Of a stretch of 7,028 bases of DNA, positions 6,118 to 6,881 are shown one piece after another. Numbering within the stretch: the stretch's first letter is position 1; every line of letters starts with the position of its first letter. A program made the position numbers and the translations under genes. Origin of the DNA: a virus. The DNA lies in IMG/VR virus record IMGVR_UViG_3300022559_000024, positions 1-7,028 of that record; one strand, 5' to 3'. The notes beneath the pieces were generated by a model. It was not told where the DNA came from, ran no database searches, and worked only from the letters and a program-made list of their open reading frames with translations.

Positions 6118-6217
6118 GAACTGATAGCAGTTAGCGAGATCCTGGACGAGATCCTGCAGGAAATTTGATAGCAATTTTGCTCGAGCAGATCCAGCTGCAG
6201 GACGAAAAATGCTAGCG
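6118..6217. promoter_or_regulatory. Three phased TGCTA(G/T)C-type boxes (44-bp spacing) plus short tandem repeats: candidate operator array
   Basis: tgatagca occurs at 6122-6129 and 6166-6173, and tgctagcg at 6210-6217. The flanks are A/T-rich (aaatt..atttt, aaaaa..). cgagatcctg is repeated at 6135-6144 and 6147-6156. Confidence 0.55.
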
Positions 6218-6511
6218 GCGATAGCCAGGGCGCAGCACGTTGGACGGCTCGAACATATCGCCCTGGCCGGCAATCTCCGCGAGCTGCACAGCGGCAGAAT
6301 GCGCGTCAGAGAGAACACGCTGGAGCACCTGAACACGTTCACGCTCTTTCCTGAGCTGGTCACGAAGATCGGCGACTTGATCGTTAAGACTAACGGCCCT
6401 GTGAGCAGCAGCGATGAATGCCTGGCTGGCAGTGCCCTTGCCGGTCAGGAGTTTGATTTGGCGGATCAGATCGATTTCAGGATCGCGGATGGTGATGGTT
6501 TTGCCTGACAT
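6212..6511 (-). CDS. 99-aa putative DNA-binding protein (RHH-like N-terminus plus coiled coil)
   Basis: MSGKTITIRDPEIDLIRQIKLLTGKGTASQAFIAAAHRAV is followed by a heptad-like VADLRDQLRKERERVQVLQRVL. GGGGA lies 9 nt upstream of the ATG. The composition is more protein-like than the overlapping ORFs 6209..6508(+) and 6115..6363(-). Confidence 0.6.
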   Translation of the reverse strand: MSGKTITIRDPEIDLIRQIKLLTGKGTASQAFIAAAHRAVSLNDQVADLRDQLRKERERVQVLQRVLSDAHSAAVQLAEIAGQGDMFEPSNVLRPGYRR

Positions 6512-6523
6512 GCTGATTTCCCC

Positions 6524-6644
6524 GTGCTAGCAAATTATCCCGCCGGCGGCGCCGACCAGGTGCAAAATGCTATCAGTTCCATCGAGAGAAATGCCACCAA
6601 TTTTCACCCTGGAACCAGGTAATCGATCGGTAATTTGCTAGCAC
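6524..6644. promoter_or_regulatory. Intergenic control region bounded by a perfect 14-bp inverted repeat, with a third box in between
   Basis: gtgctagcaaatta (6524-6537) is the reverse complement of taatttgctagcac (6631-6644). tgctatca lies at 6568-6575. A -10-like GATAAT (reverse complement of 6534-6539) abuts box 6525-6532. Confidence 0.6.
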
Positions 6645-6881
6645 CTACAAGTCGACTATCTCGCGAGCGATAGCCTTAAGCTTGGCCAGGAGTTCATCCA
6701 GTTCGGCACCTTCGCTGTCCAGCTGGTGAAGGCGAGAGGACAGGCGCCGCAAATCGGCGACACAGTTCGGGTACTGCTCCAGGACGTAGCAGACGGCATC
6801 GAGCTGGTGCCGCGTGGGGGCGTAGAGCTGGGCGGATTCGACCAGGTGGGCGGGAATTTCGAGAGGAATGGGCCGTCGCAT
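6645..6881 (-). CDS. 78-aa putative DNA-binding protein (RHH-like N-terminus plus coiled coil), possible paralogue of the 99-aa ORF
   Basis: MRRPIPLEIPAHLVESAQLYAPTRHQLDAVCYVLEQY is followed by VADLRRLSSRLHQLDSEGAELDELLAKLKAIAREI. AGGG lies 8 nt upstream. The ATG (6879-6881) lies inside the XerC-like arm of the dif-like site. Confidence 0.55.
   Translation of the reverse strand: MRRPIPLEIPAHLVESAQLYAPTRHQLDAVCYVLEQYPNCVADLRRLSSRLHQLDSEGAELDELLAKLKAIAREIVDL

Follow-up and report, generated by a model that had tools for sequence, protein, structure and literature searches.

The DNA window examined here, 7,028 nucleotides making up positions 1 to 7,028 of the IMG/VR record IMGVR_UViG_3300022559_000024, is a circular inovirus genome of 6951 bp with an assembly overlap, since positions 1-77 are identical to 6952-7028 and form a 77-nt direct repeat at its two ends. 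Beside the phage attachment site (attP) lie two small genes, the open reading frames (ORFs) ORF78 and ORF99, whose products had been described in a first-pass annotation as a duplicated pair of ribbon-helix-helix (RHH) regulators. We consider it probable that they are instead separate, independently mobile accessory genes, neighbours by chance in the slot next to attP of a dif-integrating inovirus of the CTXphi type, in which ORF99 would encode an RHH/coiled-coil autoregulator and a third gene, ORF66, the immunity repressor.

The reality of both genes could be assessed computationally. Each belongs to its own PHROG family (Table 1) and evolves under purifying selection, the ratio of nonsynonymous to synonymous substitution rates (dN/dS) against relatives being 0.04-0.05 for ORF99 and 0.09-0.24 for ORF78. 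A lack of conservation had been offered beforehand as a sign that either frame might be non-coding; both proved to be conserved in related phages. An antisense frame of 99 amino acids (6209-6508, plus strand) was rejected as spurious and is probably an artefact of opposite-strand codon structure, given that the ORF99 frame is where selection acts. Profile searching of 1.8 billion representatives recovered 91 relatives of ORF99, ~85 amino acids in length, with the family consensus MLVKIxDxxDDLxxxLKxxTGxxTASKA...coiled coil...ARSAAxxLxExxGQxDL. For ORF78, a profile search gave at least 198 relatives of 76-81 amino acids; the named sources are Pseudomonas, Metapseudomonas and Stenotrophomonas, and most other members lie on inovirus-sized metagenomic contigs.

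The secondary structure confidently predicted by AlphaFold2 bears out the common outline that had been noticed in the two sequences, in which a short N-terminal segment precedes two short helices and then a long one. In ORF99 (predicted local distance difference test, pLDDT, of 84) residues 1-12 are extended and helices span residues 13-23 and 28-80, while in ORF78 (pLDDT 88.5) residues 1-10 are extended and helices span 11-20, 26-36 and 38-77, with a kink at Pro38. These predictions were run on monomers, in which the strand of an RHH protein cannot pair and so shows as coil.

Whether this outline reflects duplication was an immediate concern. The pentapeptide VADLR is present as first reported, at residues 46-50 of ORF99 and 41-45 of ORF78, and it is the sole 5-mer common to any pair among the 14 window proteins; by shuffling, the probability that ORF78 and ORF99 share any 5-mer is 0.012. 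Close relatives of ORF78 keep V41, A42, D43 and R45 invariant, no VADLR position is constant, or close to it, in the ORF99 family, and the two copies stand three residues out of register in profile alignments. The motif is weak evidence of kinship, near chance.

Comparisons of the whole proteins are less simply read. BLASTP of ORF78 against ORF99 produced no alignment, and hhalign with shallow profiles of the close families gave a probability of 1.5%. Deep profiles raised this probability to 85.6%, over 70 gap-free columns and with a score of 33. The controls reached about two thirds of that score (22.3 for the C-terminal halves alone, 22.5 and 23.2 for reversed sequences), for which reason the profile similarity appears to be mostly that of generic coiled coils; the N-terminal domains alone gave P=0.08-0.09. 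In a HMMER search of 3281 ORFs, ORF78-family proteins matched the ORF99 hidden Markov model (HMM) over its full length, with E-values from 7e-6 to 7e-4 and median scores of 16.4 bits for real, 10.4 for reversed and 0 for shuffled sequences. The claim of a duplicated module was mostly not sustained by these results.

The co-occurrence of the two genes was computed on an unbiased sample of 96 hairpin-attP contigs of at least 5.5 kb. Both genes were found in five, ORF78 only in 26, ORF99 only in six and neither in 59, so that their presence is unassociated (Fisher p=0.33). Each is found alone, ORF99 in phage 36-2 and in vB_Pae_U10 and ORF78 at two further loci (L010, L012), which argues against the functional pair first proposed. 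Where both are present, they are neighbours with a fixed gene order, even at the 41-43% identity of silverpheasant213, as follows from their common use of the attP-proximal slot.

Two observations do not sit easily with separate histories. Firstly, full-length collinear similarity, while weak, exceeds its controls in both HMMER (16.4 against 10.4 bits) and hhalign (33 against 23), and an ancient common origin of the two families is possible. Secondly, an ORF78 C-terminal variant, 'EG..LD[DE]LLA', tends to accompany ORF99, and the alternative 'ES' variant occurred in 0/14 cases with ORF99 and in 19/28 without it. We did not accept this correlation as evidence of interaction, as it is inseparable from linkage; linkage would suffice to produce it, because recombination breakpoints, as located from blastn blocks, fall inside ORF78. 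Taken together with the common outline, the deep-profile alignment, the end-to-end cross-matches (~6 bits over reversed controls) and the fixed order, these observations are what could recommend the genes as duplication paralogues which act jointly, as repressor and antirepressor or in immunity, through coiled-coil hetero-association. We nevertheless think this improbable, given the absence of any BLASTP or close-family signal, the poor agreement of the N-terminal domains, reversed controls that reach two thirds of the real score, the misregistered pentapeptides, the independent presence of the genes, breakpoints that account for the C-terminal linkage and, as described below, palindromes that follow ORF99 only.

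As to the functions of the individual proteins, ORF99 is very probably an RHH-like, DNA-binding regulator. The profile of its N-terminus (the first ~40 residues) matches the RHH-type antitoxin 7e4j (E=0.0088), and FitA-like_RHH is the Pfam family matched most often by members of the ORF99 superfamily (7 of 90, best 9.4e-5), the other Pfam matches being mostly coiled-coil noise. The Foldseek list for ORF99 is dominated by MazE, NikR, Arc and FitA, all non-significant (E>4). When window proteins were scanned against Pfam, NCBIfam and PADLOC, the matches of ORF78 and ORF99 were coiled-coil noise only, apart from a single weak PADLOC hit of ORF99 to the candidate family PDC-M05B (E=0.0033); sequence searches of the PDB with full-length profiles of either protein likewise returned only coiled coils and designed proteins. 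The homologue of ORF99 in Pseudomonas phage 36-2 is annotated as 'DNA-binding protein 7NUV-like', a label that Foldseek did not reproduce with the ORF99 model.

The assignment of both proteins to the RHH class held for ORF99, as an RHH-like protein, and found no sequence support for ORF78. None of 62 ORF78 members matches a Pfam RHH family, the ORF78 N-terminal profile found nothing in the PDB, and Foldseek gave only weak matches to TCP, NikR and ParD (E>1), with nothing useful in BFVD. The predicted topology of ORF78 is compatible with a beta-alpha-alpha arrangement; its strand, P-L-E-I-P, places Pro and Glu at the would-be DNA-facing positions.

A second and stronger line of evidence on ORF99 comes from the DNA which surrounds it. 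The computed enrichment of the 8-bp palindrome TGMTAKCA (TG[AC]TA[GT]CA) is marked: it occurs six times in the window, five of them within 6122-6643, where 0.35 would be expected over the whole window, and none of 200 shuffles reaches six. Three of the sites lie between ORF78 and ORF99, whose 133-nt spacer is filled by these operator-like sequences, and two lie just 3' of ORF99. The site next to the ORF78 stop, TGCTAGCA, is taken in by a perfect 14-nt inverted repeat (6524-6537 / 6631-6644); the middle one, TGCTATCA, is followed on the minus strand by the conserved TTTTGCACC, and its start lies 43 bp from that of the site at 6525. The palindrome occurs four to seven times in every locus bearing a close ORF99 homologue, and it is absent from loci that have ORF78 with ORF99 missing or divergent. 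Sites flank ORF99-like genes on both sides even without ORF78, as in phage 36-2 and vB_Pae_U10. The latter is a P4-like element (locus L016, PP003922.1) with an integrase, a primase and GpN, in which the ORF99 homologue (6735-7028, 50% identity) is flanked by TGCTAGCA sites; the ORF99 cassette is thus not restricted to inoviruses.

The type of palindrome also changes with the protein. Over 15 loci in all, the beta-strand xLTIRD goes with TG[CA]TAGCA sites, which have CTAG cores (nine loci, including the window), MLIK[IL]xD with TGGTACCA sites (five loci) and MPTIMIRH with TGTTAGCA sites (one locus). Because palindrome type and beta-strand residues change together, this computed covariation argues for direct operator binding and autoregulation by ORF99. 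The geometry of the sites is similarly regular: among 70 adjacent-site intervals, a distance of exactly 44 bp is found 29 times, 23-25 bp ten times, 55 bp six times, 68 bp four times and 34 bp twice, and this clustering suggests a phasing of ~11 bp.

Several results count against such a role for ORF99 and temper our confidence in it. The window protein itself has no Pfam RHH match at E<=1, and Foldseek found no significant structural match for it, its searches of the PDB and BFVD having given nothing at E<1. The family turn, G-x-x-T (G24, T27, in the context TG-x-x-T-A-S-K-A), is one residue longer than the canonical G-x-S/T/N. The covariation of protein and site is partly confounded by the shared ancestry of linked DNA. 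Lastly, a promoter scan detected no sigma-70 promoter in 5400-7028, and the TTGCAC...GATAAT pair (6533-6567, minus strand) that lies between the operators 43 bp apart has a 20-nt spacer. We do not claim this pair as a promoter because of that spacer, which is longer than normal sigma-70 recognition allows and recalls promoters whose use depends on a distortion of the DNA. TTGCAC recurs at two related loci (L004, L009), and its spacing follows the conserved 44-bp operator pair.

From these enrichments and covariations we infer DNA binding, an oligomeric state and autoregulation for ORF99, which might operate as follows. The second helix would run on into a coiled coil of ~50 residues. RHH dimers would read the 8-bp palindromes, TGCTAGCA or TGATAGCA, through the N-terminal beta-ribbon, and higher oligomers formed by the coiled coil could bridge phased sites, typically 44 bp apart, in a cooperative manner. 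With the proximal sites occupied, ORF99 would repress its own promoter, and the 3' site pair may stop read-through from the late operon into the structured non-coding and origin region and the convergent ORF66.

Known proteins offer partial precedents for this scheme. Mnt of Salmonella phage P22 is, like ORF99, a small phage protein with an N-terminal RHH and a helical oligomerisation domain; its C-terminal coiled coil is a tetramerisation domain, and it binds a symmetric operator and autoregulates. No sequence relationship to Mnt was found, the helix of ORF99 is much longer and continuous with helix B, and, where Mnt has one compact operator, the ORF99 gene has 8-bp palindromes to either side of it, spaced mostly at 44 bp. 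The conjugation proteins TraM of F-like plasmids and Aux2 and Aux1 of pLS20 are tetramers in which a long helix accompanies the RHH, and each occupies a series of repeated sites spread along a stretch of DNA; Aux2 is an RHH relaxosome protein analogous to TraM, and 7NUV is its tetramerisation domain (PMC8829557). The likeness of ORF99 to them, an RHH with a stalk and repeated sites, is architectural only, as ORF99 is found without a relaxase or conjugation context and is half the size of Aux2. Homology of ORF99 to Mnt, TraM or Aux2 was not detected by either sequence or fold search. Within Pseudomonas filamentous phages, ORF13 of PMBT54 is an omega-like RHH regulator in the accessory region (PMC10534721); it belongs to another family and lacks a coiled coil, and its phage, which is Pf3-like, persists as an episome and has no dif hairpin. 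RHH regulators are therefore known from the accessory regions of Pseudomonas inoviruses, and the homologue in phage 36-2 was already annotated as DNA-binding, so that the genes are not without counterpart as had been supposed.

The conjugation proteins also raise the question of whether ORF99 is chiefly architectural, in the way of TraM, Aux2, TraY, ParR or omega-like proteins. A phased array near the origin and packaging region would then aid or limit replication, packaging or episome maintenance, and autoregulation would be secondary. Arrays phased at ~11 bp on both flanks would suit such a role, as would the 3' site pair, which abuts the structured non-coding stretch 5846-6118, and the '7NUV-like' label of the phage 36-2 homologue. 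We hold this to be unlikely, if far from fanciful: the cassette travels with three unrelated Rep and single-stranded DNA (ssDNA)-binding modules, as well as with a primase-based satellite, and so is not adapted to a single origin; neither 7NUV nor TraM nor ParR came up when the PDB was searched by sequence and with Foldseek; and the gene is missing from most related phages.

The FitA/VapB antitoxins (PF22513, 7e4j) provide the best sequence match to the beta-strand and helix A of ORF99, with the pattern [IL]R[DN].(P/D)(D/E)..(L/V)...LK, and could thereby suggest that ORF78 and ORF99 form a type II toxin-antitoxin system with an RHH antitoxin. ORF99 differs from these antitoxins in having neither a toxin partner nor a toxin-binding tail, the coiled coil standing in its place. 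The operator-filled spacer between the two genes precludes translational coupling, each gene is found alone, neither protein matches a toxin fold in Pfam or Foldseek, and PADLOC returned no match for ORF78 and only the weak one noted above for ORF99. This possibility is largely refuted and can be given hardly any weight.

The attachment site of the window is of the CTXphi type, as evidenced by a dif-like hairpin, tandem dif prophages and the absence of an integrase domain among window ORFs in a Pfam-type domain scan. One dif-like site occupies 6962-6934 on the minus strand and another, in inverted orientation, comes after it at 6899-6876; the ~87-nt hairpin they form has a DNA folding energy of -32.2 kcal/mol (z=-5.2). 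Computed covariation supports the fold, with compensatory double changes at 19 of 31 predicted stem pairs across 22 diverse phages. More than 119 IMG/VR contigs bear hairpins of this kind. The 5' arm, TTCGCATAAT (6962-6953), includes the stop codon of ORF62, and the 3' arm, ATTATGCGA (6884-6876), includes the start of ORF78 within ATT-ATG-CGA, an arrangement of the ORF78 ATG that recurs at all of the ~33 loci with enough upstream sequence.

CTXphi itself has a lysogeny module comprising the repressor RstR, the antirepressor RstC and a two-site attP hairpin. The present phage resembles it in its dif integration without a phage integrase, its tandem prophages, its two inverted dif-like sites and a probable repressor divergent from Rep, and integration through a single-stranded attP is a candidate mechanism by this likeness. 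It departs from CTXphi in that ORF78 and ORF99, which lie here between attP and the intergenic region, have no counterpart there, and ORF66 is not a homologue of RstR.

Close kin of the window are prophages in Ectopseudomonas and Pseudomonas. In Ectopseudomonas khazarica, at least three tandem prophage copies stand beside the canonical dif TTCGCATAATGTATATTATGTTAAAT, and the phage sequence TTCGCATAATGGCCGGCCTTATGTTGAGC is present at the left and inter-copy junctions of the array. In the related prophage locus L001, the dif-like or hairpin sites lie at 2560-2650, 9545-9640 and 16535-16565. Tandem dif-adjacent prophages were also seen in one metagenomic contig. The unit attP-ORF78-sites-ORF99-sites behaves, on sequence comparison, as a mosaic cassette, because similarity to the prophage L001, which has a different backbone, extends from attP to base 6119 and stops directly past the last palindrome. 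Three different backbones, with other replication and structural modules, carry the cassette, and within it attP and the 5' two thirds of ORF78 form one moving block of ~90% DNA identity.

The embedding of ORF78 in the hairpin could indicate an accessory factor for Xer-mediated integration of single-stranded attP, which binds or stabilises the hairpin or directs XerCD. At ~33 loci translation of ORF78 begins in the inverted XerC arm, the block just described moves attP together with the 5' two thirds of the gene, and the gene is kept in degraded prophage remnants at dif. Only 33 of 119 IMG/VR hairpin loci, however, have an ORF78-family gene at the hairpin ATG, for which reason the protein cannot, on this distribution, be essential for a hairpin-type attachment site, and with 86 of 119 loci lacking the gene we rejected an essential Xer cofactor. 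The hairpin works without ORF78 in those loci; no DNA-binding signature emerged from the Pfam RHH scan of 62 members or from the N-terminal profile against the PDB; and CTXphi-type integration is known to need only host XerCD. Even a non-essential accessory role in integration is accordingly, in our estimation, rather improbable. PSB15-type packaging-signal binding proteins of Xanthomonas phages were also considered for comparison and set aside, their WAGFXF motif and size being a misfit.

For ORF78 we infer, with due caution as to any role, a cytoplasmic, helical and probably oligomeric accessory protein, more likely a dispensable lysogeny or regulatory accessory than an integration catalyst or essential factor. 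Its translation would probably be limited by the hairpin, which buries its ATG, and by transcription across attP. Upstream, ORF62 (3-191, minus strand) encodes a small protein, basic in its N-terminal half and hydrophobic in its C-terminal tail; its TAA stop (6954-6956) lies inside the XerC-binding arm (GCATAA) of attP, and ORF78 begins in the complementary arm. One might speculate that termination at the ORF62 stop opens the hairpin at its base and so makes the start of ORF78 accessible.

Two further ideas extend our preferred reading and, taken jointly, are tentative and on balance unlikely. In the first, ORF99 would represent a hitherto undescribed 'ruler' class of regulator, in which a coiled coil ~80 Angstrom long couples RHH dimers by their tails, so that they reach across palindromes set exactly 44 bp apart. 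The ORF99 gene might then be looped or wrapped by the arrays at its two flanks, as an insulator keeping late-operon read-through out of the origin and repressor region, and the apparent recognition code (T-x-R with CTAG, K-x-P with GTAC) may be simple enough to reprogram. In the second, translation of ORF78 would be gated by attP, and its expression could report a replicative genome or a tandem array as opposed to a single prophage.

ORF66 had been named as a third regulator candidate, and this suggestion gained support: the protein has an RHH-like sequence pattern, stands in the position of a repressor and is 63% identical to a gene annotated as 'repressor' in Pseudomonas phage 36-2. Inverted and direct repeats occupy 5553-5598 of the region it shares with Rep, and in loci with diverged ORF66 homologues the GTAAC repeats are replaced by GTGAT/GTCAT. 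Because of this homology, the position facing Rep and a repeat type that shifts with the homologues, ORF66, rather than ORF78 or ORF99, is likely the best candidate for the immunity repressor, RstR-like in position.

In the remainder of the genome, the core inovirus genes are all on the minus strand, megablast against a phage collection gave a 126-nt Zot fragment as the sole match, and an Rfam scan of the window returned no match. On the minus strand, the Zot/pI gene is broken up into two frames, 544-1371 and 245-739; the window is without one G near 685 relative to an 88%-identical relative (L011), which appears to read through to the same C-terminus (...GKTPDKQTGG), and the break stems either from a mistake in assembly or sequencing or from a mutation that inactivates the gene. 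The G+C-rich non-coding stretch 5846-6118, which separates the convergent ORF66 and ORF99, contains inverted repeats at 5859-5901, 5966-6006 and 6004-6048, without an Rfam match, and probably holds the origin and packaging signals. Degraded prophage remnants (L003 10001-12500, L004 9554-13019, L005 and L006) occur in the same chromosomal neighbourhood; ORF78 and fragments of Rep persist in them, in some cases together with ORF99. Two copies of the ORF78-ORF99 pair are present in L004, and further RHH genes, of the RelB3 type, lie close by in L003.

Table 1. Features of the 7,028-nt window discussed in the text, with their positions and the basis for each.
Feature	Positions	Strand	Basis or remark
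ORF99, RHH and long coiled-coil protein, phrog_8031 (very probable RHH assignment)	6212..6511	-	99 amino acids, PHROG 3e-24
ORF78, conserved small helical protein, phrog_13909	6645..6881	-	78 amino acids, PHROG 1e-30
Palindrome TGCTAGCA	6636..6643		abuts ORF78 stop codon
Palindrome TGCTATCA	6568..6575		conserved TTTTGCACC after it on minus strand
Palindrome TGCTAGCA	6525..6532		13 nt upstream of ORF99 ATG, beside GGGGA ribosome-binding site
Palindrome TGATAGCA	6166..6173		3' of ORF99, 44 bp from 6122 site
Palindrome TGATAGCA	6122..6129		last element of mobile cassette
attP hairpin, two inverted dif-like sites	6876..6962	-	DNA fold, covariation, prophage junctions
Mosaic cassette attP-ORF78-operators-ORF99-operators	6119..6963	-	blastn block boundaries against L001, L009, L004
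ORF66, probable immunity repressor	5645..5845	+	divergent from Rep; phrog_5219 at 2e-23
ORF66/Rep control region	5535..5644		GTAAC(N)GTTAC repeats around TTGCTC...TATAAG promoter-like element
Core genes: Rep (Phage_CRI), Pf3-type ssDNA-binding protein, coat proteins, pIII-like, pVI-like, Zot/pI		-	PHROG and Pfam matches

RHH regulators and the CTXphi integration class are already known; what is unusual here is the operator geometry and a gene family embedded in attP. A shared pentapeptide, or a coiled-coil profile match without controls, is no ground for calling neighbouring small proteins duplicates. Hardly any of the small accessory genes of inoviruses carry an annotation, although lysogeny, immunity and the influence of the phage on its host are decided by them. 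For one of them, ORF99, a testable function can now be proposed together with a cognate DNA site, its natural specificity variants giving a simple recognition code, and the geometry of its sites (44 bp, ~11-bp phasing, both flanks) is unusual for RHH proteins. CTXphi-style hairpin attachment sites and tandem dif prophages are common outside Vibrio. The ORF78 family is large and uncharacterised, is present in about a third of the dif-hairpin inoviruses sampled, and, with its start inside the integration hairpin, points to a coupling of integration structure and gene expression.

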